From: an uncultured Gammaproteobacteria bacterium
GTDB lineage: Bacteria > Patescibacteriota > Microgenomatia > UBA8517
Direction: 5' to 3'
Length of the DNA: 64,000 bases
NCBI GenBank assembly: GCA_964583685.1
Contig: CAZOVJ010000002.1
Span: forward strand, 111,333 to 175,332
In this document: positions 18,265 to 63,095 of the stretch, in pieces
Numbering within the stretch: position 1 is the first letter of the stretch
Layout: each line of letters starts with the position of its first letter
Position numbers and translations under genes: made by a program
Notes under the pieces: model-generated
Seen by the model: only the letters and a program-made list of their open reading frames with translations
Told to the model about the DNA's origin: nothing
The model's database searches: none

Positions 18265-18567
18265 ATGAGAACAATTCCTAACACCATTTCTGCTAGCAAG
18301 GCAAGGGCTAATTTTTATTCTCTGTTAGAAGAAGTTGTCACTAAATTGAAGTCTATAACTATTACCAAAAGAGGTGAAGCTCAAGCTGTGATAATGCACC
18401 CAGATGAAGTTGCCTCTTGGCAAGAAACAATGGATATCCTTTCAGACAAAAAATTAATCAGAGATATTGCTATGAGTGAAACAGAAAGAAAGTCTGGCAA
18501 GATTACTTCTGAAAAAAATTTGTTAAAGGAGTTGGGAATTTCTCCTAAAGACCTTAAAGAATTATGA
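18265..18567 (+). CDS. Type II antitoxin, Phd/YefM family
   Basis: 100 aa. The MRTI.......ARANFYSLLEEV...ITKRGEAQAVIMHPDEVASWQETMDIL pattern matches YefM/Phd (MRTISYSEARQNL...[23 protein letters not shown]). Confidence 0.8.
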   Translation: MRTIPNTISASKARANFYSLLEEVVTKLKSITITKRGEAQAVIMHPDEVASWQETMDILSDKKLIRDIAMSETERKSGKITSEKNLLKELGISPKDLKEL

Positions 18568-29500: not shown

Positions 29501-30508
29501 GGCATGGGTTGCAACCAATTCTCCGACCCGTCTAAGACGGCGGTTAGCCAGGTGATCTATGTCATCGACTTTCCCTTGACCATTTTGCAGAGAAATCAAG
29601 TAGGATAAGGTGGCGACAATATCTTGTTTTGTTAAAACTCCACTTGACTCATCATTAAGAAGACCCATCTTCAATCTTTTATTTATCTTGTATCGTCCCA
29701 CTCTTCCCAAGTCGTATCTTCTTGGATCAAAAAAAAGAGTATTAACTAGATTTTCTGCATTTTCTAAAACAGCCGGCTCTCCTGGTCTCATCTTTCTATA
29801 AAATTCAAGAAACGCCTCCTCGCGCGTCTTGGTTAAATCCTTTTCTATTGTGCTGGCTATATATCGGTGGCTATTATCTATATCAGCATCGGAGAAAAGT
29901 CTCAAAATCTGGATATCTGAGGCAACCCCCATTATCCTCAAAAATGTCACCGCATTCATTTTTCTTCTTTTGTCTATCCGAACAGCAATAATGTCCTTTC
30001 TATTCACCTCAAACTCAATCCAAGAACCATGTAGGGGTCTTATCTCCGCCTTATAAAGCATTCTGCCGGAAGAAGGATCTAAATCACCTGAAAAATAAAC
30101 TCCAGGGGACCTTACCAGCTGATTGATAACGGCTCTTTCAACTCCCTTGACAACAAATGTTCCTGAAGAGGTCATCTGGGGAATGTTCCCCAGAAAAACT
30201 TCCTGGCTAACCTTCTTGCCCGTCTTTTTATTGATTAAGGTTGCTTTTATCTTGAAGGAAGAAGAAAAGGTCAAACCTTTTTCTCTAGCTGTATCCGGAG
30301 TAATCTGGGGAGGCTCCAGCTTAGGCTCAATCAATTCCAGCTGCCAATTCTTCCCTGTAAAATCCTCAATTGGTAAAATCTTGACCAGCTCTTGCTTGAT
30401 TCCCTTTTCTAAAAACCACTGCCAAGACTCTCTTTGAACTAGAATAAGGTCTAATGGGGGCAGTTTTTTCTCTGTTTTTCCGAAATTGCGTCTTTTAGGT
30501 TGGGCCAT
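23576..30508 (-). CDS. rpoBC: DNA-directed RNA polymerase beta-beta' fusion (RpoB-RpoC in one 2310-aa ORF)
   Basis: The N-terminus is beta-like. The beta C-terminus [27 protein letters not shown]...LAVELGKEG runs in frame through a linker [20 protein letters not shown] into the beta' N-terminus [11 protein letters not shown]...[26 protein letters not shown]...[12 protein letters not shown], and ends with the beta' C-terminus. The junction is at about 27210..27275, with no stop codon. Confidence 0.9.
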
Positions 30509-31918: not shown

Positions 31919-32314
31919 TCAAAAGTGAGAGGTGGTTCTGTCTAGATATTTTTGGAGAATGAGGCTGGCGGAGAAGGCATGTTCAAGTTTCTTTCTCTTC
32001 TTTCTAGAAATACCGGCTTTAATAGCCAAGGCCTGAGCATCTTGAGAACTAAGAGTTTCATCTTCCAAATCAACTTTGAGACCAGTAATCTTGACCAGCT
32101 CTTTGGCAAAAATTTTTGTTTTCTCAGCCATTACTCCTTCCGATATGCCGACAACAATCCTTTCAACTCCCTCTTCAACAACAATCTTCTTTAATTTTGG
32201 AAAAACTTCCTCAACCTTCCTCAGCCTAATAACCCGGAAGGGCTCGGCAATGGCTGAAACTGCCAGAGCCAAACCAATCTTCTTTTCACCATAATCAATG
32301 CCGAGTATGGACAT
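31919..32314 (-). CDS. ruvX: Putative pre-16S rRNA nuclease / Holliday junction resolvase-like YqgF
   Basis: The MSILGIDYGEKKIGLALA N-terminal RNase H-like motif typical of YqgF/RuvX. Confidence 0.75.
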   Translation of the reverse strand: MSILGIDYGEKKIGLALAVSAIAEPFRVIRLRKVEEVFPKLKKIVVEEGVERIVVGISEGVMAEKTKIFAKELVKITGLKVDLEDETLSSQDAQALAIKAGISRKKRKKLEHAFSASLILQKYLDRTTSHF

Positions 32315-32948
32315 GGGCTTCTTCTAAGGGCACTATTCTTGCCCTAATAACCAGCCTTTTGGGCTTCAGGGGATGGCCGGGCGGGACACAAGTTATTAAG
32401 GTTAAAAAAGAATCACTCTGATTCTGCTCTAAAACCTGAATGTTTGTGGTTAGGGCCTCAAAAATGTCCTCAACCCGATATTGATAAGAAATGCCGTCAT
32501 ATTCTACCTCAATCTCATCACCCCTTTTCAGACTGGGCAGAGTAGAAAAAATGGCCAAATAATCCTTGGGGTTGTAAAACTGAGGCAAGATTGAATGGCC
32601 GAAAATAACGGCATTCCCCCGCTTGCCGGGCAGGGCCGTACCCGGGTATTGAATCAGGCTCTGAGACAAATCCTCTCCACCGATGGCCACAGTTGCATTT
32701 TCTATTTTTAGCTTGGGAATGGAAAGAGTATAAAAAGAAATCTTCAGAGAAACAAAATCATTGCTTTCCTTTCCACCAACAAACCAATTGCTGGCCTTTG
32801 TATAGTCTGGCTGGGAGACAGAAGAACTGGCTGTCTTTGTTTCATAGGATAAAATTGGGTAAAGAACGGAAAAGAGAATAACAACACCTGAAACTGCACA
32901 AACGGCAGCTATTATGGTAATGAAAGTTTTGTTTTGCCAGAGATTCAT
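32295..32948 (-). CDS. Sortase family transpeptidase
   Basis: N-terminal membrane anchor; conserved His (AVIFGHS), catalytic TLITC motif and downstream Arg (RLVIRARI). Confidence 0.7.
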   Translation of the reverse strand: MNLWQNKTFITIIAAVCAVSGVVILFSVLYPILSYETKTASSSVSQPDYTKASNWFVGGKESNDFVSLKISFYTLSIPKLKIENATVAIGGEDLSQSLIQYPGTALPGKRGNAVIFGHSILPQFYNPKDYLAIFSTLPSLKRGDEIEVEYDGISYQYRVEDIFEALTTNIQVLEQNQSDSFLTLITCVPPGHPLKPKRLVIRARIVPLEEAHVHTRH

Positions 32949-35107
32949 TCTTCTGCCACTACTTCAATAGATATATTCCTGTTGATTCGGGGTAGAGTTC
33001 TCAGTTTTCCAGGAAGAGATGGCTTCAAACGGATCTCCACCCGAGTGAATCCAGAAATTGTTGAAAGATGATCTTCAGCCAGGGGCAGGTATTTTCCCTT
33101 AATTGCCCTAGTAATCTCCTCCGGCCTTATCTCAGGAAGCAAATTGGCTTTAAAAACTACATCAAGCTGCCAAATTCCGTTCTCACTCTTTTCATTCAGA
33201 TAAAATTCTGCTTCAATCTGCTCTTCCTTTAAAACAAAACCCTCGGCAACCTGGTCCTCCAAAATCCCTTTTGCCAATTTCTGTAAATCTGACCTTAAAA
33301 CAATTAGACCGGCCATGTCTAAAGACATACTCAGCTTAAGGGTGGGTGCCTCATCGCCAAGCTTGTGATTGAAATCCCTGGCTGAGACTGTTTTTTCTAT
33401 TGCCTCTTCGATAAAAATCTTCTCTTCACTTACCTGCTCTCGAATTTGCTTCTTGCCAAGATCAAGTAATTCTTCGCTTAAATCTCTTTCCAAAATATCT
33501 TTATCCTCAGAGGAGACAACGCTAATTTCCCGACTCGACCCACCCAAAAAATCCTCCTCTGCTATCCCGTCGACTTCGCTCTTGGGATAATTAGCCACCT
33601 GAAAGGTTTGTTCTTTCGCCAAGTTGTACTCAGCCCCAATTTCCTCCGCAGTGACGCTGACGCTGGCTGTACCCGGAGAAGAAGGAGAAACTGCGGCCGA
33701 CACTGAAGCTGAACTGTCAAGTGTGAAACTTAGATTGTTTGGTCCTAAAATTTTTGTCTCTGCCGCCAGCCTGATGTTCGAAGATGTTCCATTCTGAATC
33801 AAAACCTTACCCTTGGCCTTTTCCCCCACTCTTTTACTTCCTGTGGTCGAGCGTGTTTTATCGGCTGAAACTGATGTTTCCAAAACATTACCAGGCAAAA
33901 GCCTCTCTTCAAAATTGGCACCATTTACTCTCGGATCAACAAATAAAATTTCTTTTTGCTCAATATTCTTGGGGGCAACATAAATTGTCACCTCTGCTTT
34001 AGGTAAAAACCACCAAGCAGAAAGAGCAAGAATGATAATAGCGACAAAACCTATTCCTCCAAAAACGAAAAATCTTTTACCCGTCATCCCTCTCTGAATA
34101 GAAAAGGGAAAACTCTTCAGCTTTTTTAAAACAACAGAAGACAATGCTTTCTTAAAAAAAGAAGGTTTCTTGACAACAGGGGGAGTAGCCATTGTTTGAT
34201 CCACCTCCCTCCTTTGCTGTTCTTGAGTTATATCCTTACCAACGGTAAATCCCATATCTTCTGGCCCAAGGGCCTGGCTCTCAATCTTTTCCTTCTCTTG
34301 TTCTTTTTTTTCTCCTTCTTCTTCCGGCTCTTGCCTCTTTTCAACCTCAAGAGAGACAACTCCTTCTATCTCTGATGCCCCGGCCAAACAAACACTAAAA
34401 AGCTTACTGTCTGAGTCAATAATTTCCACCTTTGGGGTGTGAAGAAATTGTACCTTTTCTTGCAAATTTCCTGTCCAGTCTGCCGCTATAAGAATCTGCT
34501 TCTCTTCTTCCAGGTCGCCTTCTCTACCATTGTATATCAAAAATCGTGAGGGAAATGGCTCACCGGTTTTAAGCCTAACCAACCCCTCAATAAGATCGTC
34601 TACCACTGAAACGCTTCTTGTCACAGAGGTTGTGCCCACTAAATTTCCCAGTCTATAAACAGCTATATCCAAGAGTTCTTGGCCTAGACCAATAACCACC
34701 GCACTTAAAGGAGAACCTTCTTCTGATTTAATAAAATGAGCAATTGCTTCTGGAAGAACAACAAATCCCACTGGTTCAAGAGAAAGTTTAGAACAAATCC
34801 CTCTTATCTTGTCCAAATATTCTTTTTTTATCTGGCCTTTCAAGACCCATGATGATGAAACTCCAAAAACTGTTTTTGAGGGTTCGGGTGCATCTTCGGG
34901 TAAATCCTGTATTGCTAGCGATAAAGAAGTATCAGCCACATTTGGCAAATCCTCATCTTTCTCCCAACGAGAGGGGGGGCTGGTTGAGTAAACTTTTGCC
35001 TTCTTTGTTTCCTGGTCTATTACCCAAACAGCCGCCTGAATCCAATTAGGCTCGATTAGTAGAGACCAATAATACTCTTGCATAGATTCTCCGAATACCC
35101 GAGGCAA
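32945..35107 (-). CDS. Hypothetical bitopic membrane protein (about 330-aa cytoplasmic N-domain, one TM, about 350-aa extracytoplasmic domain)
   Basis: 720-aa ORF. The N-terminal region (YYWSLLIEPNWIQAAVWVID...) is weakly reminiscent of actin-like FtsA/PilM N-termini. An acidic linker is followed by a TM helix (FFVFGGIGFVAIIILALSAWWFL) and a Ser/Thr-rich C-terminal domain. Confidence 0.5.
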   Translation of the reverse strand: MPRVFGESMQEYYWSLLIEPNWIQAAVWVIDQETKKAKVYSTSPPSRWEKDEDLPNVADTSLSLAIQDLPEDAPEPSKTVFGVSSSWVLKGQIKKEYLDKIRGICSKLSLEPVGFVVLPEAIAHFIKSEEGSPLSAVVIGLGQELLDIAVYRLGNLVGTTSVTRSVSVVDDLIEGLVRLKTGEPFPSRFLIYNGREGDLEEEKQILIAADWTGNLQEKVQFLHTPKVEIIDSDSKLFSVCLAGASEIEGVVSLEVEKRQEPEEEGEKKEQEKEKIESQALGPEDMGFTVGKDITQEQQRREVDQTMATPPVVKKPSFFKKALSSVVLKKLKSFPFSIQRGMTGKRFFVFGGIGFVAIIILALSAWWFLPKAEVTIYVAPKNIEQKEILFVDPRVNGANFEERLLPGNVLETSVSADKTRSTTGSKRVGEKAKGKVLIQNGTSSNIRLAAETKILGPNNLSFTLDSSASVSAAVSPSSPGTASVSVTAEEIGAEYNLAKEQTFQVANYPKSEVDGIAEEDFLGGSSREISVVSSEDKDILERDLSEELLDLGKKQIREQVSEEKIFIEEAIEKTVSARDFNHKLGDEAPTLKLSMSLDMAGLIVLRSDLQKLAKGILEDQVAEGFVLKEEQIEAEFYLNEKSENGIWQLDVVFKANLLPEIRPEEITRAIKGKYLPLAEDHLSTISGFTRVEIRLKPSLPGKLRTLPRINRNISIEVVAEE

Positions 35108-45870: not shown

Positions 45871-46713
45871 TTAGCTTATTGTATTTCCTTTATAGATTTT
45901 CGGTTCGAGCCAAGATTTCGGAGGCTCCTCTTTTTTATTAACTTGAGAAGTCTGTTTGGGTATTGCCCCGGCCGGAAAAACCCGGGGGTCAACCTGATGT
46001 CGAGGAGCCCTCTGACCACCTGCACGCATAAGTTCAGAGGCGATAGCAAATGTTTCTGCTGTAACTTCCGGAACTGTAAAATTCTTACTACCATGCTCGA
46101 TTCCCAGTAAAAGATTGCTAGCAATATCGGCATTAAAACTAAACCCACTTTCTTTAATTAAAGTGGCAGCCACCTCTGAAACAGAAGAGGCTGGTCTTGC
46201 CAAGGATATTATCTTGCGATTGTCAGAAGTAGAAACCGCCCTTGTTCCAATATGGACAGTTTTTGTTTCGAGAAAATCACTTGTTGAAAGGGCGGGAAAA
46301 TGCTTCTCGCTTCTCCCCCCAAAAAGGACAAGTAAATCACTGGAAACCCCACTATAGGAAAACTCAATTTGCTCCTTTTTCGGAGATGTAACACCCGCTT
46401 TTGGCGTAACCGTTAAACGAAATTCCTTGTTTTCAATATCATAACCCACTCTTTCAATATCATCTGCTCTATAGCCAACAAATCTAATTATCAAATTTTT
46501 ATTCCCTTGCTCTGAATTTATTTTGTTGACTCCAACCAGACGATTAAATTCGACCAGCATCGGGGTTGGACAAGAAATGCTCACCTCTTTTTTATCTGAA
46601 AGAAACAGATAAAACGACAGTCCAGCAGCCACCTGATCGAAAAATGGGTTTATGGGCAAGAGAATAAGAACAGACTTACTTGTATCGAGAAGGGGCTTTA
46701 AAGAATTTTCCAT
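45871..46713 (-). CDS. Hypothetical protein, possibly a degenerate DHH/DHHA1-like phosphoesterase
   Basis: 280 aa. It occupies the position between infB and rpsO where rbfA, truB or DHH nanoRNase genes sit in other bacteria. The N-terminal VLILLPINPFFDQVAAGLSFYLFLSD resembles a DHH-family N-terminus but lacks an intact DHH motif. Assignment is weak. Confidence 0.35.
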   Translation of the reverse strand: MENSLKPLLDTSKSVLILLPINPFFDQVAAGLSFYLFLSDKKEVSISCPTPMLVEFNRLVGVNKINSEQGNKNLIIRFVGYRADDIERVGYDIENKEFRLTVTPKAGVTSPKKEQIEFSYSGVSSDLLVLFGGRSEKHFPALSTSDFLETKTVHIGTRAVSTSDNRKIISLARPASSVSEVAATLIKESGFSFNADIASNLLLGIEHGSKNFTVPEVTAETFAIASELMRAGGQRAPRHQVDPRVFPAGAIPKQTSQVNKKEEPPKSWLEPKIYKGNTIS

Positions 46714-54016: not shown

Positions 54017-54043
54017 CTAGCACTCACCCATGTCAAGTGCTAA
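54017..54043. promoter_or_regulatory. CIRCE operator (HrcA binding site) for the hrcA-grpE-dnaK-dnaJ operon
   Basis: cTAGCACTC-acccatgtc-aAGTGCTAA matches the CIRCE consensus TTAGCACTC-N9-GAGTGCTAA as a 9-bp inverted repeat with a 9-nt spacer. It lies immediately upstream of hrcA. Confidence 0.75.
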
Positions 54044-55749
54044 TTTTGGATTTCGTGGGCAGGCGGGGTAAGAGGCTCTGGCTCTTTGGGCGGGGGTGAT
54101 ATTTTGAACTTCTTGATGCTATCAAATAAAGCAAAAAACTCTTTTGACTTTAAAACAAAAGAAATACCAAGATAGATGCCAAGGCCAACTGCAGCAACCA
54201 CTCCTGTTAGAATCAGCAAATTAAAGGTATAGCGCGTGTCTAAGACAAAACGCTCAAAGGGGAGAGCGGTGGCGTCAATTTTACTTAAAAAAGAAAGTCT
54301 TTTTACCCAGACAGACCTGTCGAAGAACTTTAAAAGAAAAAACATAACAGCTCCCGACATAAGAGATGCGATAACACTTTTGCAAACAGGCAATAAAGCG
54401 CTAAAAAGCGGAATCCCACCCACTTTTTTGCCCAAAAGATAAAAAAGGACCATTGCTTGAACCCCTACCCCAAAAGAGAAAGAGACGGCCAAAGAATAAA
54501 GTGGTAAAGAAAATCCCTTGACAAGAACAATATCAACCAAAATTATTAAAATAACGCTTGATAAAGAGACGATTACCGGAGTCCTCGTGTCATGAAGGGC
54601 ATAAAAAGCCCTGGCTAAAAGAGCAACTACTGCCTGGAAAACGATACCAACAGCAAAAGCAGATACTACCATGCCTGTTTGGACCGTGGCTTCCCAAGTG
54701 AAGTTTCTGGCACCAAAAACAAGTCTTACTAAGGGGATTCTTAAAACCATAAGAATCGTTGCCGTTGGTAGGACCAAAAAGACAATTTCATAAAAAGTTG
54801 TTAGAAAAGTTCTTCTGAATTTATTTAAATTGTCCCCTTGACGAGCCAGGGTTGGTAGAGCTGCCTTAGCCAAAGATGAACCAAAAAGGCTAACAGGTAA
54901 AAGCTGTAGGCTATTGGCAAAAGTAAAATATGTATAGGAAGCAGTTGATATCAGGGAAGCCAGAAAAAGCTCTACAGTTTTTTCTACCTGTAGGAAAGAA
55001 AGGTCGAGCACGCGGGGCAAGGCAAGCTTGCCAATCTTCTTGACAGTCTGATTTGGCCTAAGTTTAGCTGTAAATCTGAAGCCAAGCTTCCGGGCCAGAG
55101 GGAGCTGAACCAGCAAATGGGCCAAGGCTCCAACCACAACCCCGATAACTGGGGCAAAGAGGCCAAGACGTGAATTTAAGATTACTATTCCAAAAATTAT
55201 TCCCAAGTTATACAAAATCGGTGCAAAGGCAGGAACCAGAAATCTTCTCGAAGACTCAAGGACACCAGTTAAAACATAACTTATGACAAACAAACCCTGG
55301 GCAAGAAAAAGTATACGGGCTAAATTAACAATCCTCTCTATTTGGAAAACAGTGAAGCCCGGTGCAACCAAACTATAAATCTGTCTTGCCCAAATACCAA
55401 AGATAAAAGCCAGGGGAATAAAAATTAGCAGACCGATATTGACAACTCTAGCGGCAGTATCCCAGGCTTCTTTTTCCTTTAGTTTCAAGGTCTTCGTAAA
55501 TACTGGTATGAAGGCGGAGGAAAACATGCCGAAAACTAAAATTTCGAAAACTGTGTCCGGCAAGCGAAAGGCAGCAAAAAACAGAGAAAGCTCCTCTCCT
55601 GTAAAAAAGTGGACAAGAACCCTTTGGCGAACAAGGCCAAGAACACGAGAAGTAATAATCATAACCATAATTACGGTGGCAGCAGAAAGAATGGATTCCT
55701 GCGGAGAAGTTAAAATCCTTTTACCTTGAGAAAAGATTCTTCTAAACAT
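54040..55749 (-). CDS. murJ: Lipid II flippase MurJ (MviN family)
   Basis: 569-aa polytopic membrane protein with a MurJ-like N-terminus (…ILSAATVIMVMIITSRVLGLVRQRVLVHFFTGEELSLFFAAFRLP…). Confidence 0.7.
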   Translation of the reverse strand: MFRRIFSQGKRILTSPQESILSAATVIMVMIITSRVLGLVRQRVLVHFFTGEELSLFFAAFRLPDTVFEILVFGMFSSAFIPVFTKTLKLKEKEAWDTAARVVNIGLLIFIPLAFIFGIWARQIYSLVAPGFTVFQIERIVNLARILFLAQGLFVISYVLTGVLESSRRFLVPAFAPILYNLGIIFGIVILNSRLGLFAPVIGVVVGALAHLLVQLPLARKLGFRFTAKLRPNQTVKKIGKLALPRVLDLSFLQVEKTVELFLASLISTASYTYFTFANSLQLLPVSLFGSSLAKAALPTLARQGDNLNKFRRTFLTTFYEIVFLVLPTATILMVLRIPLVRLVFGARNFTWEATVQTGMVVSAFAVGIVFQAVVALLARAFYALHDTRTPVIVSLSSVILIILVDIVLVKGFSLPLYSLAVSFSFGVGVQAMVLFYLLGKKVGGIPLFSALLPVCKSVIASLMSGAVMFFLLKFFDRSVWVKRLSFLSKIDATALPFERFVLDTRYTFNLLILTGVVAAVGLGIYLGISFVLKSKEFFALFDSIKKFKISPPPKEPEPLTPPAHEIQN

Positions 55750-55826: not shown

Positions 55827-56087
55827 ATGCCAGTAAGCAAAACAGCCAAAAGAGCCCTAAGGGCATCAAAAAAAAAGACCATTGTCAATAAGATTATCTT
55901 CAGCAATCTTGAAAAGGTTATGAGGCAGGCCAAAAAAGACAAGGTCCCTCAGACAATTAGGAAAGCCATTTCTTTGGCTGACCGGGCCGCAAAAAAGAAA
56001 ATAATTCACAAAAATAAAGCAGCCAGAATCAAAAGCTCTCTTTCAAAACTTCTGGCTAAGAGCAAAAAAAAGGCAGTCAAAAAGTAA
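55827..56087 (+). CDS. rpsT: 30S ribosomal protein S20
   Basis: 86 aa, basic and all-helical; the ...KKKIIHKNKAARIKSSLSKLL motif matches S20 (LIHKNKAARHKANL). Confidence 0.75.
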   Translation: MPVSKTAKRALRASKKKTIVNKIIFSNLEKVMRQAKKDKVPQTIRKAISLADRAAKKKIIHKNKAARIKSSLSKLLAKSKKKAVKK

Positions 56088-56133: not shown

Positions 56134-56673
56134 ATGACTGCTCTACAGATTAATCTTTTACCTCAGGAAGAATTTGCCGCCTCCACTTTGGGGAGGATAT
56201 TAACTTGGTTACTTTCAACTTTCCGAATAATAGTAATTGTCACTGAAATGATTGTTATGTCTTCTTTTTTTCTCCGATTTTGGTTCGACGCCAAATTGAC
56301 TGACCTCTCTGAAGAGATTCAACAAAAACAAGCGATAATCAGTTCCTATTCTTCTTTTGAAAAGGATTTCAGGCTTGCCCAAAAAAAACTTAGGATATTC
56401 TCATCATCGACTTCTGACCAGAAAAGCCTAGAACTCTTCCAAGGTCTCATCTCTTGCTTACCGGAAAACATCCAGCTAAATTCCTATTCTGCCAGCCTCA
56501 ACGATTTGCAAATAAAAGCAATGAGTACCAACGAACAATCAATTGCTCAATTTATAGCCAACCTGGAAAACAAAGAACAATTTAAAAATGTTTCTTTGAG
56601 AAACCTTGAAACAAATAAGGACGACCTGTTCATTGGTTTCCTGATCAAAGTTAATCTGAAAGGAGATATATAA
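56134..56673 (+). CDS. pilN: PilN-like type IV pilus assembly protein
   Basis: N-terminal INLLPQEE signature (PilN INLLPWREE), a single TM, and a coiled-coil periplasmic domain. Confidence 0.55.
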   Translation: MTALQINLLPQEEFAASTLGRILTWLLSTFRIIVIVTEMIVMSSFFLRFWFDAKLTDLSEEIQQKQAIISSYSSFEKDFRLAQKKLRIFSSSTSDQKSLELFQGLISCLPENIQLNSYSASLNDLQIKAMSTNEQSIAQFIANLENKEQFKNVSLRNLETNKDDLFIGFLIKVNLKGDI

Positions 56674-57329
56674 TGGCTCTTGGTTGGAAACGAAGATATC
56701 TTCGTTATCAAAAATATTATTTAAATATCCTTGCCCTTTACAAAAAACGCCAGGATTTAAAAATGTTCTTAGAAATTCTTCTTTCTCTGGCCACAATTGC
56801 CTTTTTCGCTGTTTTTGCCTTGAAACCAACCCTCCTGACTATCGCCCAGCTAAAGAGGGAGGTAGATACTAAAAAAGAAACAGTCGTCAAAATGGAACAA
56901 AAAATTCAGAATTTGTCTCGTGCTTCAGCCCTTTTTAATCGAGAAATATCCAGGCTTTCACTGCTCGATACGGCTGTTCCGAGCAATCCTTCTCCCGGCT
57001 TAGAAGTAAGACAAATTGAAGGAATAGCGAAAAAAAATAAAGTAAGCATTTTGGGAATATCTCTAGGAGAAATTACCCTTGTCGGCCAAGAAAAGGAAAA
57101 GTTCAAAGAGAAAAAAGAGTTAAAAGAATTTCCTGAAGGAGCGAAAGCAATAAGTCTCTCGATTAATGTTTCGGGCACATATCCTGATTTGGTTGCCTTT
57201 CTTTCTGATTTAGAAAGCCTGAGAAGGCCATTGCGGATAGATGCAATCTCTTTTAATCTAATTTCCACAGAAGAAAAACAAACAATTGTCTTGACGCTAG
57301 CTGGCCGGGCACCTTATCTTAAGGACTAA
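56673..57329 (+). CDS. PilO-like membrane protein
   Basis: 218 aa; cytoplasmic basic N-terminus, one TM, and a coiled-coil plus alpha/beta C-terminal domain. The start overlaps the pilN stop (ATAATGG coupling). Confidence 0.4.
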   Translation: MALGWKRRYLRYQKYYLNILALYKKRQDLKMFLEILLSLATIAFFAVFALKPTLLTIAQLKREVDTKKETVVKMEQKIQNLSRASALFNREISRLSLLDTAVPSNPSPGLEVRQIEGIAKKNKVSILGISLGEITLVGQEKEKFKEKKELKEFPEGAKAISLSINVSGTYPDLVAFLSDLESLRRPLRIDAISFNLISTEEKQTIVLTLAGRAPYLKD

Positions 57330-57337
57330 ATAGCTTA

Positions 57338-57619
57338 ATGAAAAAACAAAGAGTCAAAACACCAAGTCTAGTTATCATCGCCATCCTGACGGTAATCACC
57401 ATCGCTTTTTGGATAGCATTCAATGTTTTTAGAACCCTGACTATAAAAACACCGTCGTCTGTTCCCCTGGAAATTCTCTCCCCTCTTAATCCCAATCTTG
57501 ACTCACCGGCCCTTAAAGGGCTACAAGAAAGGATACAATTAACAAACACAGAGATCGACAGCATGGAAGCACCGGAAATAAGTTCCTTGGCCAGTCCAGA
57601 AGGAGAAATTAATGAATAA
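57338..57619 (+). CDS. Small membrane-anchored protein (hypothetical, possibly PilP-like accessory)
   Basis: 93 aa, with a basic N-terminus, one TM, and an acidic Ser/Pro-containing tail. Confidence 0.35.
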   Translation: MKKQRVKTPSLVIIAILTVITIAFWIAFNVFRTLTIKTPSSVPLEILSPLNPNLDSPALKGLQERIQLTNTEIDSMEAPEISSLASPEGEINE

Positions 57620-58961
57620 ACTCAAAATGAATAAGCTAAAATTACCAACATTGATTGCTGTTATAGTTCTCACCATGGGGCTGGCAGCCGGCGTTCTTTT
57701 GTTACAAAGTAAACAAATCTTTAAACTCGGGGCCTCTCCTGACATTGCCCCAAAAGATGTCAGGATAACAAATATTACGGACACTTCCTTTACTGTCTCC
57801 TGGACAACAGATAAAAAAACCAGTGGTTTTATTATTTGGGGAAAAACTGAACAATTGGGACAGACAACAATTCCGGAAAACCAAGGATTAAAAAACGTTC
57901 ATTCAATAACCACTAGACAGCTTTCTCTTGAAACAGCTTACTTTTTAAAAATCAATTCCAATGCCAACGAATTTGATAATAGTGGAATTCCCTGGCGGAT
58001 GAAAACCGGTCCCTCTCTTAAAATCCTCTCTGTTCCGGGAATCATTTCCGGCTCTATTTTGACCGCCACTGGACAACCAGCAGCAGAAGTTACTGTTTTT
58101 GTCAGTGCCGGAGGAATCAGCCCTCTGTCGGCAACAACTTCTCAGGATGGCAGTTGGGTAATTCCCTTGTCTAACATCCGCAGTGCGGACCTTTCTTCAT
58201 TTGGGCAGTTAAAACAGGCAAATGTTCTTTTAGAAATCTTTGTTCAAGGAGGCCCGCTGGGAGTTGCTACTGCCAAAATCTTTACCAATTCGGCTAATCC
58301 CACCCCCCATATCATTCTCGGTAAAACACATGATTTTAGAAATGAGCCGGCAAATGAAGCTTCCGAACTGCCCGAGGCCTCAATCAATTTACCAGAAGAA
58401 TCCACGCCCTCTTCTGGCTTTGAAATCCCTGAGGAAATAGCCACACCTTCGGGGGAAACAATCAGTATAGAAAGTATAAGTGAAGGAGAAACTATAAGTT
58501 CCACCGAGCCAGAATTCTTCGGGAAAGGGCCTTCGGGAACCATTATTACTATTACCATCGAATCAGACCCGATCTCCGCTCAAACAACTGTTAATTCTTC
58601 GGGAAATTGGAATTGGAACCCACCAGAAGAACTAGAAGAAGGAACACATCAAATTACTCTTTCTTGGAAAGACAGCAATGATATCTTAAGGACCTTAACC
58701 CGAAACTTCATTGTTCAAGCAGCAGAAGGGCCTGCTTTTGAATCAACACCCTCGGCTGAGCCGACTGCTTCTCCATCTCCTTCTCCAACTCCCTCTGCCA
58801 GCCCTTCAGCCTCTCCCCGTGTAAGCCTACCCTCTACTGAATCAGGAACCCCAATTCCCGGAACCTTGACACCCACTCTAGTCTTGTTTACGATAGGAAC
58901 AGGGCTACTTACTTTGAGTGGAGCACTTGTTTATTTATTGTTGTTTCATAAACAAAATTAA
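57612..58961 (+). CDS. Cell-surface protein with an N-terminal anchor, an FN3-like domain, Ig-like domains, a Ser/Pro-rich linker and a C-terminal hydrophobic anchor
   Basis: The FN3-like signature is DVRITNITDTSFTVSWTTDKKTSGFIIWGKT. The linker is AEPTASPSPSPTPSASPSASP. The C-terminus ...LPSTESGTPIPGTLTPTLVLFTIGTGLLTLSGALVYLLLFHKQN has a sorting-signal-like architecture. Confidence 0.5.
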   Translation: MNKLKMNKLKLPTLIAVIVLTMGLAAGVLLLQSKQIFKLGASPDIAPKDVRITNITDTSFTVSWTTDKKTSGFIIWGKTEQLGQTTIPENQGLKNVHSITTRQLSLETAYFLKINSNANEFDNSGIPWRMKTGPSLKILSVPGIISGSILTATGQPAAEVTVFVSAGGISPLSATTSQDGSWVIPLSNIRSADLSSFGQLKQANVLLEIFVQGGPLGVATAKIFTNSANPTPHIILGKTHDFRNEPANEASELPEASINLPEESTPSSGFEIPEEIATPSGETISIESISEGETISSTEPEFFGKGPSGTIITITIESDPISAQTTVNSSGNWNWNPPEELEEGTHQITLSWKDSNDILRTLTRNFIVQAAEGPAFESTPSAEPTASPSPSPTPSASPSASPRVSLPSTESGTPIPGTLTPTLVLFTIGTGLLTLSGALVYLLLFHKQN

Positions 58962-58986: not shown

Positions 58987-60195
58987 ATGCCAGATCAACC
59001 TGCCCCAAACAAACCAGATAAACCTGTTTCTCAACCTTCTCAGCCCGTTAGTGGCAAGCCGCCAGCTCCAACCCTTCCTCCCCAACCATCAACTCCTGGA
59101 GCTCCCCCTGCACCAATTCCTCCTGGGCCTCCTCCTCCATCTCCTCCTATATCTCCTCTGCCTTCAAAATCAGAGAGTGAAGAACTTCCTCCAATCATTA
59201 GCACTCCAGCCAAAAAGAAATTGGGCAAAGGCAAAATAGTTGCCGCAATTTTGGGAGTTTTGCTTTTGGTTGGCGGCGTTACGGCCGGAGTAATCCTGGT
59301 CCAACAGCGCCAGGAATTAAGAGAAAAGGCAGCATGTACCCCATGCCTAGGAGGGACATGTCCTGATGGATGGTCGTACGGGCCTGATGAATGTTCCTGG
59401 CAACCATGCGACGCTAGGGCGATAGAAGCGTGTAAGGACCATCAAATTACTTCGGACGGTGGCGGTGAAGAACCCAGTGAAGGAGAAGGTCCTTATTGCG
59501 CCATCTGTAGTCCTGCGGACGCATGCGAGTGCGATAAGGGTACTACAACAGGTTATAAATGCAAATTTGCTCCCTCAGAGTGTGCTCATTTAGGCTACAC
59601 CTGGCAACCAGATTCCAGCTGCCCGACTGGTCAATCATGTGGTGACGAGGGAGAGGAAGCTGGTTTTGAATACATTACATTCGAGTGCGATCGGTGCGAA
59701 GGACTAAAATGCCAAACCGAACCGGTAATAGGAGTTAATCCTCGATTCATGCTTGGTAACCATCCCGGACCCTGTAGTCAGGTAGATAGAAGACCGATAG
59801 GCTCCACTGATGGCTGGACCGCTCACGATCTCTGCGATAACGACGATTGGTGTATATCACCAACCGCTACCCCAACCTTACCTCCGGGTATAACCTGTCA
59901 GTGTCGGGAAATCAAGGCCTTTGATACCGGCTGGAATCAGTTAACCTCAGAACAGCTAGGGCAGCTCCAGGCTGGAGATACCGTCTATTTCACTGTTAGC
60001 GGTACTAAAACCTCAGGAATTTTTGACAAGGCGAGGTTTACCATTAATGCCATTCTCAGACCAGAGGTTACCAACAAAAGACCGGGAACTGACGAATTCT
60101 ATGACCAGTATCAAATTACCTCAACCGATATTAGCCGGGGTAGTATCAGTCTGGGAGCCATCATTCATCATCAAGAATTAGATGAATGGTTCTAA
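58987..60195 (+). CDS. Membrane-anchored Cys-rich extracytoplasmic protein with a Pro-rich cytoplasmic N-terminus
   Basis: An approximately 80-aa Pro-rich N-terminus (PAPNKPDKPVSQPSQPVSGKPPAPTLPPQPSTPGAPPAPIPPGPPPPSPP) is followed by a TM and about 27 Cys in CxxC / C-x-C patterns (CTPCLGGTCPDG...CAICSPADACECDKG...CDRCEGLKCQ), with a beta-rich C-terminal domain. Confidence 0.5.
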   Translation: MPDQPAPNKPDKPVSQPSQPVSGKPPAPTLPPQPSTPGAPPAPIPPGPPPPSPPISPLPSKSESEELPPIISTPAKKKLGKGKIVAAILGVLLLVGGVTAGVILVQQRQELREKAACTPCLGGTCPDGWSYGPDECSWQPCDARAIEACKDHQITSDGGGEEPSEGEGPYCAICSPADACECDKGTTTGYKCKFAPSECAHLGYTWQPDSSCPTGQSCGDEGEEAGFEYITFECDRCEGLKCQTEPVIGVNPRFMLGNHPGPCSQVDRRPIGSTDGWTAHDLCDNDDWCISPTATPTLPPGITCQCREIKAFDTGWNQLTSEQLGQLQAGDTVYFTVSGTKTSGIFDKARFTINAILRPEVTNKRPGTDEFYDQYQITSTDISRGSISLGAIIHHQELDEWF

Positions 60196-60673
60196 AAAAA
60201 TGAAAGAATTTTTAAAGAAAAATACAATTACGGTCTTAATTATCATTGCCACCATCGTCTTAGCTGGCATCGCTATGTTTACCGCCTTCAGGCTCTATCA
60301 GCTAAGACAAAAGGCGGTCGCCCCCACTGTACCCGAAAGCAGGCCGGCTGCCGAAGAACTTCCCGCGCCTGTTCCTGATTGCACCCTGACCTTTGCTTTT
60401 GCTGCCACGCCAACTCCCACAGCAACACCGACTGGAAGCCCCAGCCCTACACCGACAGCCACGCCGGCAGAAAGTCCAACACCCACACCAACAGCCACTC
60501 CCACATCCACTCCCTCTCCCAGCCCGACTGTTACACCCAGTCCAGGTGTCATTCCAACCCCCTCACCCACCCCGGCCCCTGAGCTGCCAGAAGCAGGCAT
60601 CAACTTACCAACAATCTGCGGGCTTGGCATTGGCGCCCTTCTCCTCATTATCAGCCTCATCCTAGCCCTCTAG
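60182..60673 (+). CDS. Small surface protein with an N-terminal anchor, a Thr/Pro-rich mucin-like repeat region, and a C-terminal LPEAG + hydrophobic tail
   Basis: TPTPTATPTGSPSPTPTATPAESPTPTPTATPTSTPSPSPTVTPSPGVIPTPSPTPAPELPEAGINLPTICGLGIGALLLIISLILAL. The repeat DNA yields spurious overlapping ORFs in other frames. Confidence 0.5.
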   Translation: MNGSKKMKEFLKKNTITVLIIIATIVLAGIAMFTAFRLYQLRQKAVAPTVPESRPAAEELPAPVPDCTLTFAFAATPTPTATPTGSPSPTPTATPAESPTPTPTATPTSTPSPSPTVTPSPGVIPTPSPTPAPELPEAGINLPTICGLGIGALLLIISLILAL

Positions 60674-60686
60674 GTTCTTTTGTTCC

Positions 60687-63095
60687 TTATCTCCATGAAG
60701 AAAACCAGTAATAAGAATTGTCCAGACTAAGTGGTATTTTCAAGCCTATCCAATGAGGATAAAAATAAAGGAAAATTATTCCTGCAAGGACAAAGAAGGG
60801 AATGGCCAGTCTAGAAAACCTTCTCAGAACATAAGCTGTTACCATTGCCAAAAAGGGCATTGAAGGCAGATAATGATAAAGAAACATTATTCTCGGTGAA
60901 ATTGCCCAGGGAACAAAAAAGGCAAAACAGGAAAAAACAATCAAAGCCAGTTTTTTATTTTTTTCAAAATAGGCATAAATTAGGCAAATGACAATTGCCA
61001 ACACTCCAAACCAAAAAACCAGGGGATTACCCATGGCATAGATATTGGCAACTGCATGCCTGATTGCTCCGCTGGTATAAAGCCAAACCGGCCGAAGCAA
61101 AAAGGGCCAACTCCACCAGGGAGATGTATAAGGATGAGTGGCTTCCAGTTGGGAATGATACCACCACATTTGTTTTTGGAGACCAACGAAAATATCCCAA
61201 CCATGGCCAGTTAAAAAGAGCGGCAGATAACTTGCCAGGTAGACGGCTGCCGGAACAAGCAAAAACCAAAGGTAACCCTTGGTAAATTTTCGTTTAAGAG
61301 AGAAGTGGGAAATTAGCAAAACCGGAATCATCCAGATGACAGTCCATTTGGAAGCAGCAGCCAGACCCAAGGCCATGGCCGAGAAAAGGTTTTCCTTTTT
61401 AAGGAAGAGATAAAGAGAAAGCAGGCTAAAAAACAAAAAATAAATATCGTTCATGGCGATTCTGGACATGCTTAAGACCAGGCCGTCCAAGGCAAAAGCT
61501 CCTGAGGCCAAGAGAGCTAGTAGCCGGTCTTTAAATAGCTCTTTTGTCAGTAAATAAACAAGATAAACCGTGACCACGCCCAGTAAGGCCGCCGGAATCC
61601 TCCAGCCAAAGGCATTTTCGCCAAAAACAAGCATCCCCAAAACCATTGCTTCTTTAGCCAACGGCGGGTGGGTCCATTCATAGGCAAAACCTTTAGGCGG
61701 CGTATTCCACCATTCCCAGACCTTTGGGTCCCCATGAAGCATGCGCCGGGCCGTAAAGGCATGATAAACCTCATCAAAATATTCTTTTTTGGGCTGACCC
61801 AACCAGGCAACTCGGGTTAAAAAGGAGAAAATGAGCAGGCCAATTAGTAAGTTTCGACCCACAACTTGGCTTATGTCTTTCCTCTTCTTTTCCTTCTTAA
61901 ATTTAATTAACTGATTGAATAAAGGTAAAGCAAACCTTTTACTTTTCTTCACCAATATTTCACGGAAGAGAAAAAAGAGAAACCCAAGGTTGAAAAGGAT
62001 AAAAATTTTTAGAACCAAGGGAGAAAAAACGCTCAAAAAATCTTTTGTTATCCAGTTAAAGGAATAATATAAATTAGCAAGATAAATGGCGGAAAAGCCA
62101 AGATAAGGAATCCAAAGACGAGAATTTAAAACTGAAGCAATTGCCAGAAAGGCAAAAGCCGGTAAAAGATGTCTTTCGTGCATCCGGGTAAAAAAGAAAA
62201 AGCTTGAAATAAAAATCATGCTAGCCAGAAAATAGCGACCCCCCTTAACTTTTCTTGAGCACCATAAGACTAATAAAGATAGAGTAAAAGTGATAATCAG
62301 TCCGGCTATCTGTAAACCTAGGTTATCCTTTTGCCAAAAACCAAAAAGCCCCAAAAAATTAAAAGCATTAATAGTCGTATAGGGATATTGATTAAGACCT
62401 GTCTGGATTCTTGACAAGATAAAAACAACTAAATTCTGTTCTCCAGAAAAAGGGACAAATCCCAGGATAAAAATCAAGAAAGCAAAAACTATATAAATAA
62501 AAATCTTTTTTGTTTTCCATTTCTCTTTTAACATAATGAAAAGAACAACTGCTGCCGCCAGTCCTGCCTGGGGTTTAACCAATGTGCCAAAGCTCAAGAA
62601 AAACGCTGAAAGAAAAGGATTGATATCAACTAAGTAAATCGCCAAAAGAGAGAATAGGGCGGTTAAGGAATCTACCTGCCCCCAAAGACTAGAGTTTGCC
62701 AAAATAGCAGGATTAAAAACATAGAAACTGGCCGCAATCAAACCCCACTTTTTGTTTTTAATCTTCCTAACAATCAAGTAGATTAACCAGCCACTGAGAA
62801 TATCAGAAATAATCGCCGGGAATTTATAAAGAATAACGCTAGGTATTGACAGCCAATTACTTAATTTTGCCAAAAAACCAAGTATGTAAAGATAGCCGGG
62901 AAGATAATCGCACCAGCTCTGATAAAACCTGGCAAACCCTACATTGACCAATCTGTTGCTCCAAGCAATAAAAGTGTTTTGGTCAAGCTCCAGTGTTCCA
63001 TGGGGAGAAAGAAAAAATCTGACTATCAAAGCTGTTAAAAGTAGCAGTAAAATAGGGAAGAGTGAAAAAAGCTTTTCCCTTTTTTCAGATTCCAT
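60687..63095 (-). CDS. Large polytopic membrane glycosyltransferase, GT-C fold (PMT/ArnT-like), apparently two GT-C-like modules fused
   Basis: 802 aa with more than 20 TM segments. The C-terminal half carries a PMT/ArnT-type first-loop motif YFDEVYHAFTARRML followed by multi-TM helices. The N-terminal half is a second polytopic module (…FARFYQSWCDYLPGYLYILGF…). Confidence 0.5.
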   Translation of the reverse strand: MESEKREKLFSLFPILLLLLTALIVRFFLSPHGTLELDQNTFIAWSNRLVNVGFARFYQSWCDYLPGYLYILGFLAKLSNWLSIPSVILYKFPAIISDILSGWLIYLIVRKIKNKKWGLIAASFYVFNPAILANSSLWGQVDSLTALFSLLAIYLVDINPFLSAFFLSFGTLVKPQAGLAAAVVLFIMLKEKWKTKKIFIYIVFAFLIFILGFVPFSGEQNLVVFILSRIQTGLNQYPYTTINAFNFLGLFGFWQKDNLGLQIAGLIITFTLSLLVLWCSRKVKGGRYFLASMIFISSFFFFTRMHERHLLPAFAFLAIASVLNSRLWIPYLGFSAIYLANLYYSFNWITKDFLSVFSPLVLKIFILFNLGFLFFLFREILVKKSKRFALPLFNQLIKFKKEKKRKDISQVVGRNLLIGLLIFSFLTRVAWLGQPKKEYFDEVYHAFTARRMLHGDPKVWEWWNTPPKGFAYEWTHPPLAKEAMVLGMLVFGENAFGWRIPAALLGVVTVYLVYLLTKELFKDRLLALLASGAFALDGLVLSMSRIAMNDIYFLFFSLLSLYLFLKKENLFSAMALGLAAASKWTVIWMIPVLLISHFSLKRKFTKGYLWFLLVPAAVYLASYLPLFLTGHGWDIFVGLQKQMWWYHSQLEATHPYTSPWWSWPFLLRPVWLYTSGAIRHAVANIYAMGNPLVFWFGVLAIVICLIYAYFEKNKKLALIVFSCFAFFVPWAISPRIMFLYHYLPSMPFLAMVTAYVLRRFSRLAIPFFVLAGIIFLYFYPHWIGLKIPLSLDNSYYWFSSWR

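Follow-up and report, generated by a model that had tools for sequence, protein, structure and literature searches.

The gene examined here, designated T, lies in a 64-kb window, by which we mean the whole stretch of DNA that was analysed, and it belongs to a row of genes that begins with those for ribosomal protein S20 and a PilN homolog and ends with the downstream neighbour of T, designated D (Table 1). In about 30 genomes, found by a locus search with an alignment of an 8-sequence subset of the family, the order is nearly fixed as MurJ(-) | S20, PilN, PilO, small protein, Big_13 protein, T, D | PMT(-), and the loci seen usually have one T copy per genome, with up to three. PilN is syntenic in every locus that is complete on that side (27 full-length and one truncated), and 26 of the 27 complete orthologs keep the INLLPQEEF motif, which we take to be the PilM-binding motif known from the PilM-PilN complexes of type IV pili. 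The PilO-like protein matches Pfam PilO (2.1e-4) and T2SSM_b (2.9e-4), both just below the cut-off, and NCBIfam GspM (5e-6). The Big_13 protein, present in 23 of 28 loci with conserved termini, has an N-terminal transmembrane segment (TM), a C-terminal P-x-S-G..PT sequence followed by a TM and a basic tail, and no cysteine. The PMT gene adjoins the cluster in most loci, and a sortase gene is found within the window. A scan for promoters gave a count about 2 SD above the shuffle mean, the individual sites being consensus matches only, and terminator-like hits were not enriched, with the exception that a hairpin with a T-run is located exactly at the end of D. T clearly has a set place in an operon-like cluster, S20-pilN-pilO-small protein-(fn3/Big_13 protein)-T-D. 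The conserved pilN/pilO neighbourhood, the strongest clue at the locus, had not been mentioned in the initial annotation.

Table 1. Genes and features at the T locus, in positions of the window.
Feature	Position	Strand	Basis
MurJ, left border	54040-55749	-	Pfam MurJ; syntenic
Ribosomal protein S20, left border	55827-56087	+	S20-like ORF; syntenic
PilN homolog, N-terminal INLLPQEEF motif	56134..56673	+	Pfam PilN 1.8e-11; syntenic
PilO/GspM-like bitopic protein	56673..57329	+	Pfam/NCBIfam matches; syntenic
Small bitopic protein, 93 aa, no known family	57338..57619	+	Conserved in 28/28 loci
fn3/CarboxypepD_reg/Big_13 surface protein	57612..58961	+	Pfam
T, whole gene: bitopic membrane protein, 402 aa + stop	58987..60195	+	ORF list and translation; homologs share architecture
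T, Pro-rich disordered cytoplasmic N-tail, aa 1-83; MPD start, PPII(S/T) juxtamembrane motif, KKKLGKGK positive cluster	58987..59235	+	
T, TM anchor aa 84-106 and conserved juxtamembrane helix LVQQRQELREKAA to aa 116	59236..59334	+	Hydropathy peak, AF2 helix, family consensus
T, Cys module 0, aa 117-149, 6 Cys	59335..59433	+	Cys positions
T, Cys module A, aa 170-218, 8 Cys	59494..59640	+	Invariance vs P0019 and P0020
T, Cys module B, aa 228-289, 6 Cys	59668..59853	+	Conservation in P0146 and P0140
T, Pro/Thr linker aa 290-302 (ISPTATPTLPPGI), possible O-glycosylation site (inferred)	59854..59892	+	PT linkers in homologs; PMT genes nearby
T, Ig-like beta-sandwich C-domain, aa 303-402; invariant Cys306 (here CQC), HH motif, terminal W-F	59893..60192	+	
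Partner protein D, 163 aa	60182..60673	+	Directly downstream of T
PMT-family (protein O-mannosyltransferase-like) membrane glycosyltransferase, convergent with the operon	60687..63095	-	Pfam PMT, PMT_2, PMT_4TMC

The reading frame and strand first assigned to T hold, with an ATG at 58987 and the stop codon at 60193-60195, and the plan of tail, TM, variable middle and C-domain is common to 20 homologs (including P0002-P0020). A public JGI gene call (P0001) begins at the TTG of codon 79 and omits the long N-tail; we regard the tail as part of T, since homologs are called with equivalent tails beginning MPD or MxD (MPD in 52 of 141) and the ATG is only 25 nt past the upstream stop codon. The shortened gene call and the biased composition of the Pro-rich and the acidic Gly-rich stretches are what could be expected of a mis-called reading frame or of low-complexity drift, but the family is large, its synteny fixed, one domain is confidently folded and the cysteines are kept within modules, and an artefact, already refuted by these conservation data, can be given practically no credence. 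No domain was recognised in T with Pfam and NCBIfam. The sole NCBIfam match, to GltJ (22 bits, with a cut-off of 450), and the sole match among PDB sequences, to LpoB (E 0.086), both fall on the Pro-rich tail and were dismissed as compositional. Foldseek with the full AF2 model against PDB gave only generic beta-sandwiches, all with E above 0.01, and no paper describing the family or the gene cluster was found in a literature search.

A Pro-rich N-terminus and a single TM had been proposed for T, and both are borne out, with 30 prolines within residues 1-80 and one sole hydrophobic segment at about 84-106 that includes IVAAILGVLLLVGGVTAGVILV. The AF2 model has a helix over residues 82-116, and the anchor has the family consensus KKxGGKKxIATIxGxLxLxGGxxAGVxLVQxQQxIRExAA, in which A115 is invariant. 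The N-tail has a low AF2 pLDDT and no predicted secondary structure; across the family its median length is 87 aa with 19.6% Pro and 0.0% Cys, and it lacks cysteine altogether in 140 of 141 members. In the family the net charge is +4 on the N-terminal side of the TM and 0 beyond it, and because of this positive-inside bias T is with good support predicted to be bitopic with an N-in/C-out topology, the Cys-free Pro-rich tail being cytoplasmic. The earlier proposal that this tail could recruit partners in the cytoplasm is conjectural. Cleavage by signal peptidase after the conserved ...REKAA was considered and not adopted, as position -3 is charged and AF2 models a continuous helix. The surroundings of the TM (KKKLGKGKIVAAILGVLLLVGG) do not contain the G|F/M-T-L-x-E motif of the class III signal peptide of type IV pilins and pseudopilins, and unlike the short basic leader of a pilin about 80 residues precede the TM. 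Nor does T have a C-terminal LPXTG-like sorting signal; it ends with ...IIHHQELDEWF inside the folded domain. With a conserved tail start (MPD) and a juxtamembrane motif, a single-pass protein of this kind could be a transmembrane sensor or an anti-sigma-like signaller, with an ectodomain that senses a ligand and a Pro-rich tail that signals to a cytoplasmic partner. This is very improbable: neither a folded domain on the cytoplasmic side nor any known domain of signalling or anti-sigma proteins was found in T, the conserved cluster contains no regulator gene, and the tail is weakly kept, being alignable in just 5% of member pairs.

The part that follows the anchor is rich in cysteine. The initial annotation counted about 27 cysteines, whereas T has 22, at residues 117, 120, 125, 136, 141, 149, 171, 174, 180, 182, 192, 199, 212, 218, 234, 237, 242, 263, 283, 289, 304 and 306; the motifs it quoted are all present (CTPCLGGTCPDG at 117-128, CAICSPADACECDKG at 171-185, CDRCEGLKCQ at 234-243 and CQCREIK at 304-310). 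Cysteine makes up on average 0.42% in the 54 remaining long ORFs of the window, with a highest value of 2.0% per protein, and at this background the probability of at least 22 cysteines in 402 residues is 1e-17, so that the enrichment is far beyond chance. In this organism the variable middle is with strong support made up of three small Cys-rich modules. Two of them, A and B, could be compared with homologs, and among the few homologs that share them every cysteine is kept. Module A has the pattern YCAICS..CEC..G..TG..C..AP.EC..LG.TWQPDS.C..G.SC and is 57% identical to its counterparts in P0019 and P0020, in which 8/8 Cys are unchanged, and module B has the pattern EYITF.CD.C....CQT.P.GVNPR...GN.P..C.Q.D... 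with 6/6 Cys kept in P0146 and P0140. Module 0 has no alignable homolog among 142 family members and an AF2 pLDDT of about 35-43, and the Cys-rich region as a whole is not confidently modelled (pLDDT 30-43); a PDB sequence search with this region gave nothing significant.

Of 141 family members, 133 have an even number of cysteines in the variable region (binomial p = 2.4e-30), and the number is likewise even in each of the three modules of T (6, 8 and 6), which lie outside the cell in the predicted topology. This parity, seen throughout the family, indicates that the modules probably fold by intramodule disulfides outside the cell. An extracytoplasmic, disulfide-stabilised Cys part, as had been suggested, is most likely, with support from the charge bias, the Cys-free tails and the even counts. 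Several CxxC and CxC spacings in T could also be those of Zn or Fe-S ligands in a cytoplasmic domain with the topology reversed. The positive-inside charge bias is opposite to this arrangement, however, metal ligation is at odds with the even parity over 141 members, PT-rich linkers and Ig-like, CARDB and VWA domains are on the same side of the membrane as the cysteines, and no metal-binding family in Pfam, NCBIfam or PDB sequences matches the Cys-rich region; we consider ligation of metal by a cytoplasmic domain extremely improbable.

The middle of the protein is hypervariable: 5.3% of member pairs can be aligned there, compared with 99.7% in the C-domain. This middle carries 0-44 cysteines, is altogether absent in some members, and in others holds a different payload, namely CARDB in 7 of 39 low-Cys members and a VWA domain in P0129, which makes the adhesin or display role proposed for T plausible. 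In the closest pair of genomes PilN and PilO are 81-82% identical and the C-domain of T 66%, and the middle merely 20%. The initial annotation had made its reading depend on cysteine positions being conserved among homologs, and named low-complexity drift as the alternative. Conservation throughout the family fails, the middle being so rarely alignable, but drift is not borne out either, as the shared modules keep every cysteine. Comparison of the sequences instead argues strongly that the slot evolves by replacement of modules.

The C-domain of about 100 residues, which the initial annotation had rightly called beta-rich, is in the AF2 model (pLDDT 93) a beta-sandwich as in the Ig-like superfamily. 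It has one cysteine that is invariant across the family and is located on the first strand, and in nearly all homologs it is preceded by a PT-rich linker. No Pfam or NCBIfam model passes its cut-off on the C-domain of the family; among Pfam Big_* models none is above the gathering threshold, Big_15 (8 of 18 members, best E 0.0065) and Big_7 are found below it, and T itself has no Big_* match even there. A C-domain profile gave nothing significant among PDB sequences. The same profile found 1368, 896 and 319 cluster representatives at E <= 1e-3, 1e-10 and 1e-30, respectively, with the domain nearly always at the extreme C-terminus of the matched proteins. No family had been recognisable in the initial annotation, but T does belong to a large one, of at least 1368 clusters at 50% identity, which is defined by the C-domain together with the anchor. 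As judged by alignment, the conserved part of T is the TM anchor and the Ig-like C-domain rather than the Cys-rich domain. Anchor and C-domain had earlier been treated as secondary. The genome matches with informative labels are all Patescibacteria, Microgenomates or Woesebacteria MAGs, and in our searches the family is so far seen only in Patescibacteria, with Woesebacteria and Microgenomates as named sources.

In every locus D comes directly after T, and the end of T and the start of D often overlap at their stop and start codons, as is the case here (60182 versus 60195). It has an N-terminal TM, one conserved lone cysteine (PDCTLTF), a PT-rich stalk and LPEAG followed by a hydrophobic tail, a sortase-type signal, and the motifs C-x-x-L-T-F and LP[EDQ][AS]G recur in the D family. 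T-D pairs are duplicated in tandem in two loci (L011 and L017), related Cys modules occur both in the slot of T and in the variable region of the neighbouring D, and the total number of cysteines is mostly odd in both families. These data could be taken to mean that T and D form an obligate, disulfide-locked heterodimer displaying interchangeable Cys-knot cassettes, as a diversifying system for host recognition or phage evasion specific to Microgenomates. The invariant unpaired cysteine on the first Ig-like strand of T would then bond to the conserved cysteine of D in its strand-like C-T-x-L-T-F-T segment, and the bond would join membrane-anchored T to a sortase-anchored, glycosylated stalk next to PilN/PilO, with both subunits drawing cassettes from a shared pool of modules. 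In its full form this proposal is speculative and rather doubtful. The pattern of one free cysteine in each partner is less clean in this organism, because the total in T is even (22, with the motif CQC) and D has two cysteines, one of them in the C-terminal hydrophobic tail. Alternatively, the invariant cysteine and the conserved HH motif could together make up a metal site or a covalent one.

T is a real membrane-anchored surface protein, so far uncharacterised, of ultra-small and probably episymbiotic bacteria, and what was first observed and first proposed for it is in each case confirmed or supported in part. With a little better than even confidence we regard it as a bitopic, N-in protein that folds oxidatively, serves in surface display or adhesion and is linked to an envelope module with PilN/PilO. 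That module would have the (PilM-binding) PilN/PilO alignment proteins of the type IV pilus machinery at its core, with T as a subunit for display at the surface or for adhesion; the variable cassette of T might be the exposed part facing a ligand or host, and the conserved C-domain the docking part. Docking would probably be to the LPx[AS]G-tailed, PT-rich D, possibly by a disulfide between the single unpaired cysteine of each. The PT-rich linkers in T, D and the Big_13 protein would likely be O-glycosylated by the enzymes of the adjacent PMT genes. The link to pili is drawn from one kind of evidence, the synteny with pilN/pilO, and since general envelope genes (MurJ, PMT, LCP) also flank the cluster, it could be envelope biogenesis, and not pili, that T is associated with. 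T might accordingly be a free-standing adhesin or receptor-binding protein unrelated to type IV pili, its position next to pilN/pilO reflecting a conserved neighbourhood of envelope genes; pilM, pilB, pilC and pilin genes are found neither in the window nor in the 7-8 kb flanks of the homologous loci, and CARDB and VWA payloads would suit a generic adhesin. We take this seriously but consider it unlikely, as the order pilN-pilO-small-(Big13)-T-D persists in about 30 species-level genomes, the genes being closely spaced or overlapping, and is kept although the identity of PilN and PilO falls to about 40%, which would be unusual without functional coupling.

To our knowledge, host recognition and attachment by Patescibacteria are largely unknown outside a few cultivated Saccharibacteria. 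The T family consists of widespread, unannotated and lineage-specific surface proteins whose genes keep a fixed place beside those for pilus alignment, and a rapidly exchanged, probably disulfide-bonded cassette is a feature expected of a molecule that faces a host, a ligand or a phage. T would also be one more example of a protein with densely spaced disulfides outside the cytoplasm, from bacteria among which proteins of this kind are regarded as uncommon. The parts of the family are now defined, namely the anchor, the Ig-like domain with its lone cysteine, the partner gene D and the shared module pool, and they provide targets for structural work, for studies of population variation in metagenomes and for genetics in cultivable relatives. 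All cultivated Patescibacteria/CPR are episymbionts on other microbes (PMC11623550).

Among known systems, T resembles PilP of the type IVa pilus and GspC of type II secretion in being encoded after pilN-pilO (as PilN-PilO-small-(Big13)-T in 28 of 28 loci complete on that side) and in having an N-terminal anchor, a Pro-rich region that is long and flexible, and at the C-terminus a beta-sandwich of about 100 residues, and could for these reasons be their monoderm counterpart and true homolog. It differs by having a TM anchor and an 80-aa cytoplasmic tail (83 aa up to the TM) in place of a lipobox or a short tail, and by its Cys-rich insert, and no sequence-profile or structural match to the HR-type beta-sandwich was found in Pfam, NCBIfam or the PDB fold search. 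Homology is quite improbable. CPR organisms are thought to be monoderm-like and without a secretin (10.1101/335083).

With Gram-positive modular adhesins T shares an Ig-like domain, PT-rich linkers, CARDB or VWA in some slots, neighbours with LPx[AS]G-type sorting signals and the sortase gene in the window, but T has no sorting signal of its own, ends with a conserved ...HHxxLGWF, has an N-terminal TM and a cytoplasmic tail, and its Ig-like domain reaches the threshold of no Pfam model. MdbA-like oxidoreductases encoded next to VKOR are reported to be a CPR-enriched family (10.1101/335083), and the MdbA/VKOR-dependent proteins of Actinobacteria (pilins of Actinomyces and Corynebacterium) are, like T, extracytoplasmic proteins of monoderm-type bacteria with paired cysteines. 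The density in T is far higher, with 20 cysteines in about 175 residues, its modules are variable and exchangeable whereas the Actinobacteria proteins have one or two structural disulfides, and the ORFs scanned in the 64-kb window include no such oxidoreductase gene (DsbA, MdbA or VKOR). The variant surface proteins (VSPs) of Giardia have a conserved membrane anchor and terminal segment together with a highly variable, CxxC-rich ectodomain, with modules exchanged among paralogs and among adjacent genes. They belong to another domain of life and show no homology to T, and no evidence of switching or antigenic variation of T was found. By analogy only, the two are alike in their conserved anchor and terminal segment and their variable cysteine-rich ectodomain, the modules of which T shares with its neighbouring gene.

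The ORF of protein T is genuine by the ORF list and its translation, and the product has much of the layout claimed in the initial annotation: a proline-rich N-terminus (30 prolines among residues 1–80), a single strongly hydrophobic segment at about 84–106, and every cysteine motif quoted, with 22 cysteines rather than about 27. Cysteine content averages 0.42% over the 54 further long ORFs in the window (maximum 2.0% per protein), and at this background 22 cysteines in 402 residues have a probability of about 1e-17. The public JGI annotation of the identical protein (P0001, 324 aa) places the start inside the ORF, at codon 79 (TTG), and omits the 78-residue proline-rich tail; this is likely a systematic start-site error for the T family. 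The long form is supported by the position of the ATG 25 nt past the upstream stop codon, by equivalent tails in the homologs, and by an MPD start in 52 of 141 members. T is not an artefact.

A search of 5.8 billion proteins returned 19 relatives in addition to the identical sequence, the named sources being Candidatus Woesebacteria and Patescibacteria. All 19 follow one plan, with an N-tail rich in P, T, S, N, D and Q, a conserved anchor (consensus KKxGGKKxIATIxGxLxLxGGxxAGVxLVQxQQxIRExAA), an unalignable middle, a Pro/Thr linker and a well conserved C-domain of about 100 residues. The C-domain has the consensus C..IKAYDT.WN.L....L..L..GD.VRFTVSG..SSG.FDKARFTING....EVT.KKPGT.EFY.EYTIP.G...F...A..HH..LGWF with invariant C, W, G, F, N, Y, H and W residues. 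Its profile matched 1368 proteins at E <= 1e-3, 319 of them at E <= 1e-30, among 1.84 billion cluster representatives, and in nearly all of them the domain sits at the very C-terminal end. It is covered by no Pfam or NCBIfam model, and Big_15 and Big_7 were found below threshold in some members only. Two of the proteins (P0021 and P0022) carry the C-terminal Ig-like domain in two copies, and in the 6424-residue P0023 the centre of the profile matches partially at 56 places. T is bitopic, lineage-specific and widely conserved, and it combines a hypervariable cassette outside the cytoplasm with a conserved Ig-like C-domain; the family is not one already described.

In an AF2 model built on the 19-sequence alignment the N-tail is disordered, residues 82–116 form a long helix, residues 117–292 have no confident fold (pLDDT 30–43), and a confident beta-sandwich is found at 300–402. 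Over 141–142 family representatives having a TM segment and an N-tail, the 15 residues ahead of the TM segment carry a net charge of +4, compared with 0 after it. Proline makes up 19.6% of the N-tail, which lacks cysteine in 140 of the 141 members; in 124 of 141 there is a single cysteine in the C-domain. Between anchor and C-domain there are 0 to 44 cysteines, and the count is even in 133 of the 141 members (p = 2.4e-30), which is the expected signature of disulfide pairing outside an N-in protein; we strongly infer that the modules lie outside and are disulfide-bonded. Similarity of the cysteine region to metal-binding families was not found. An MdbA-like oxidoreductase family, often encoded beside VKOR, is reported to be enriched in CPR (10.1101/335083); no such MdbA-like/VKOR gene was found among the scanned window ORFs.

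All-against-all BLASTP of the four regions in 142 members (E < 1e-3) aligned 99.7% of pairs for the C-domain, 33% for the anchor, 5.2% for the N-tail and 5.3% for the middle, and in some members (P0011, P0015, P0035) the middle is missing entirely. Between L004 and L019, the most similar pair of genomes, identity is 81% for PilN, 82% for PilO, 66% for the C-domain, 57% for the N-tail and 20% for the middle. The middle of the window protein consists of three modules, listed below with the other features.

Features of the window and of homologous loci (window coordinates unless a locus or residues are given)
Feature	Position	Strand	Remarks
Unassigned ORF	339-1664	-	441 aa; no Pfam match at E <= 1e-3
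Phd/YefM-type antitoxin gene	18265-18567	+	alone on + strand between S10 and L3-L4 ribosomal protein genes
rpoB-rpoC-like ORF	23576-30508	-	2310 aa; Rpb2 (RNA polymerase beta domains) aa 67-1075, Rpb1 (beta') aa 1092-2261
Sortase gene	32295-32948	-	overlaps end of 720-aa ORF
720-aa ORF with sortase gene	32295-35107	-	function of ORF unassigned; marginal Baseplate_J match only (E 2e-4)
Unassigned ORF	45871-46713	-	280 aa; no Pfam match at E <= 1e-3
Big_13 protein	57612-58961	+
T	58987-60195	+	402 aa
Tail omitted in P0001	58987-59220	+
Module 0 of T	residues 117-149		6 Cys; no alignable homolog found
Module A of T	residues 170-218		8 Cys; shared with P0019, P0020; 8/8 Cys invariant
Module B of T	residues 228-289		6 Cys; shared with P0146, P0140; 6/6 Cys conserved
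D	60182-60673	+	163 aa; start overlaps T end; alternative ATG at 60200 fits MK(D/E)F start of homologs
T-T-T-D	L006 5272-8646
T-D-T-D	L011 3294-8036
T-D-T-D	L017 4336-8529
T/D hybrid gene	L025 7903-8691		12 Cys in middle
T/D hybrid gene	L033 5234-6031		14 Cys in middle

Conservation of the cysteines among homologs holds in part, as the middle is unalignable family-wide and all cysteines are kept in the shared modules A and B; drift as the source of the variation was rejected on this full conservation. Among the low-Cys members the slot holds CARDB in 7 of 39, and a VWA domain occupies it in P0129, both adhesion-type modules. Related cysteine modules, e.g. C..C.....C...L.C....CRNP.C..E..C.C, are found in the variable region of the D family as well. 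Both hybrid genes encode a T-like proline-rich N-tail and anchor with a Cys-rich middle, and a D-like [IL]P[DQ]SG sorting signal replaces the Ig-like domain, indicating domain shuffling among the genes of the cluster.

T is fixed in a cluster containing pilN and pilO, with the order S20, PilN, PilO/GspM-like, a 93-residue bitopic protein, the Big_13 protein, T and D on the + strand, a divergent MurJ gene upstream and a convergent PMT-family glycosyltransferase gene downstream. The same order is found on four metagenomic contigs with T homologs, and by pattern scan in 30 GTDB species-representative genomes, whose informative labels are all Patescibacteria, Microgenomates or Woesebacteria. Some MAG records with this Patescibacteria-type cluster (L013, L015, L016, L018, L020–L022, L024, L025, L027, L029–L031) are labelled 'uncultured Gammaproteobacteria', probably a placeholder or wrong taxonomy. 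PilN, PilO and the small protein precede T in every locus complete on the upstream side (27 with full-length PilN and one with a truncated PilN), and the Big_13 protein does so in 23. T is followed by D in every locus, and in many cases the stop codon of T overlaps the start of D. The cluster is expanded in L006, L011 and L017, in the last two by tandem duplication of the T–D pair. The window PilN (Pfam match 1.8e-11) begins MTALQINLLPQEEF, and INLLPQEEF is kept in 26 of the 27 complete orthologs. From established PilM-PilN work we take this to be the PilM-binding motif, so by its sequence the window PilN is apparently functional in pilus alignment; pilM, pilB and pilC were not found near the cluster. 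Elsewhere in the window, the ORF resembling an rpoB-rpoC fusion lies upstream of an rpsL-rpsG-fusA-tuf-type gene order, in which S12 and S7 were assigned from their position alone.

The Big_13 protein also carries fn3 and CarboxypepD_reg domains; it has hydrophobic anchors at both termini, the N-terminal one conserved as KIPTxxGIxxLxxGLAAGVxLVQNxQIFRLGA, and is free of cysteine in this genome and in 22 of 23 orthologs. Its C-terminus, P-[ED]-S-G-[SN]-L-T-P-T with a TM segment and a basic tail, may be a second, divergent sorting signal. The window sortase could be the enzyme for the LPx[AS]G-tailed proteins of the cluster.

The window D has an N-terminal TM segment, a PDCTLTF motif, a long PT-rich stalk, LPEAG and a hydrophobic tail. 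In the D family (window and L001–L033 homologs) the anchor VTILILIATxVLAGVAIFTAxRLYQLRQExVAPTAP is highly conserved, the middle is variable, PT-rich or Cys-rich, and the C-terminus reads LP[EDQ][AS]G..PT before a hydrophobic tail. Total cysteine counts are mostly odd in both families, the sum of one conserved lone cysteine and an even count from the variable part. The lone cysteine of T is located in the first strand of the Ig-like domain, and that of D about 25 residues past the anchor in a short strand-like motif, C-[TS]-x-L-[TS]-F-T, which in minimal D proteins is the sole non-linker element. These odd totals and lone cysteines, together with strict adjacency and tandem co-duplication, suggest an intermolecular T–D disulfide. 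The window pair departs from this pattern: T is a CQC variant, its cysteine total being even, and the C-terminal tail of D contains a second cysteine. Alternatively, the invariant cysteine of T might act with the conserved HH motif.

We infer that T pairs with D, is functionally associated with the PilN/PilO complex and has a role in surface display or adhesion; the adjacent PMT enzymes are predicted to O-glycosylate the PT linkers. The earlier proposal of an extracellular, disulfide-stabilised and possibly adhesive module was partly right, the Cys-rich part being a variable payload and not the family-defining element. T matters mainly for the host-interaction biology of CPR, and would be of greater interest if T and D form a disulfide-locked, cassette-swapping system. 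The closest known analogues of T are PilP/GspC, judged by where the gene lies and how the protein is laid out, and the modular adhesins of Gram-positive bacteria. When membership was tested T belonged to neither, and we would place it as a variant among the surface and pilus-accessory proteins already known from bacteria.
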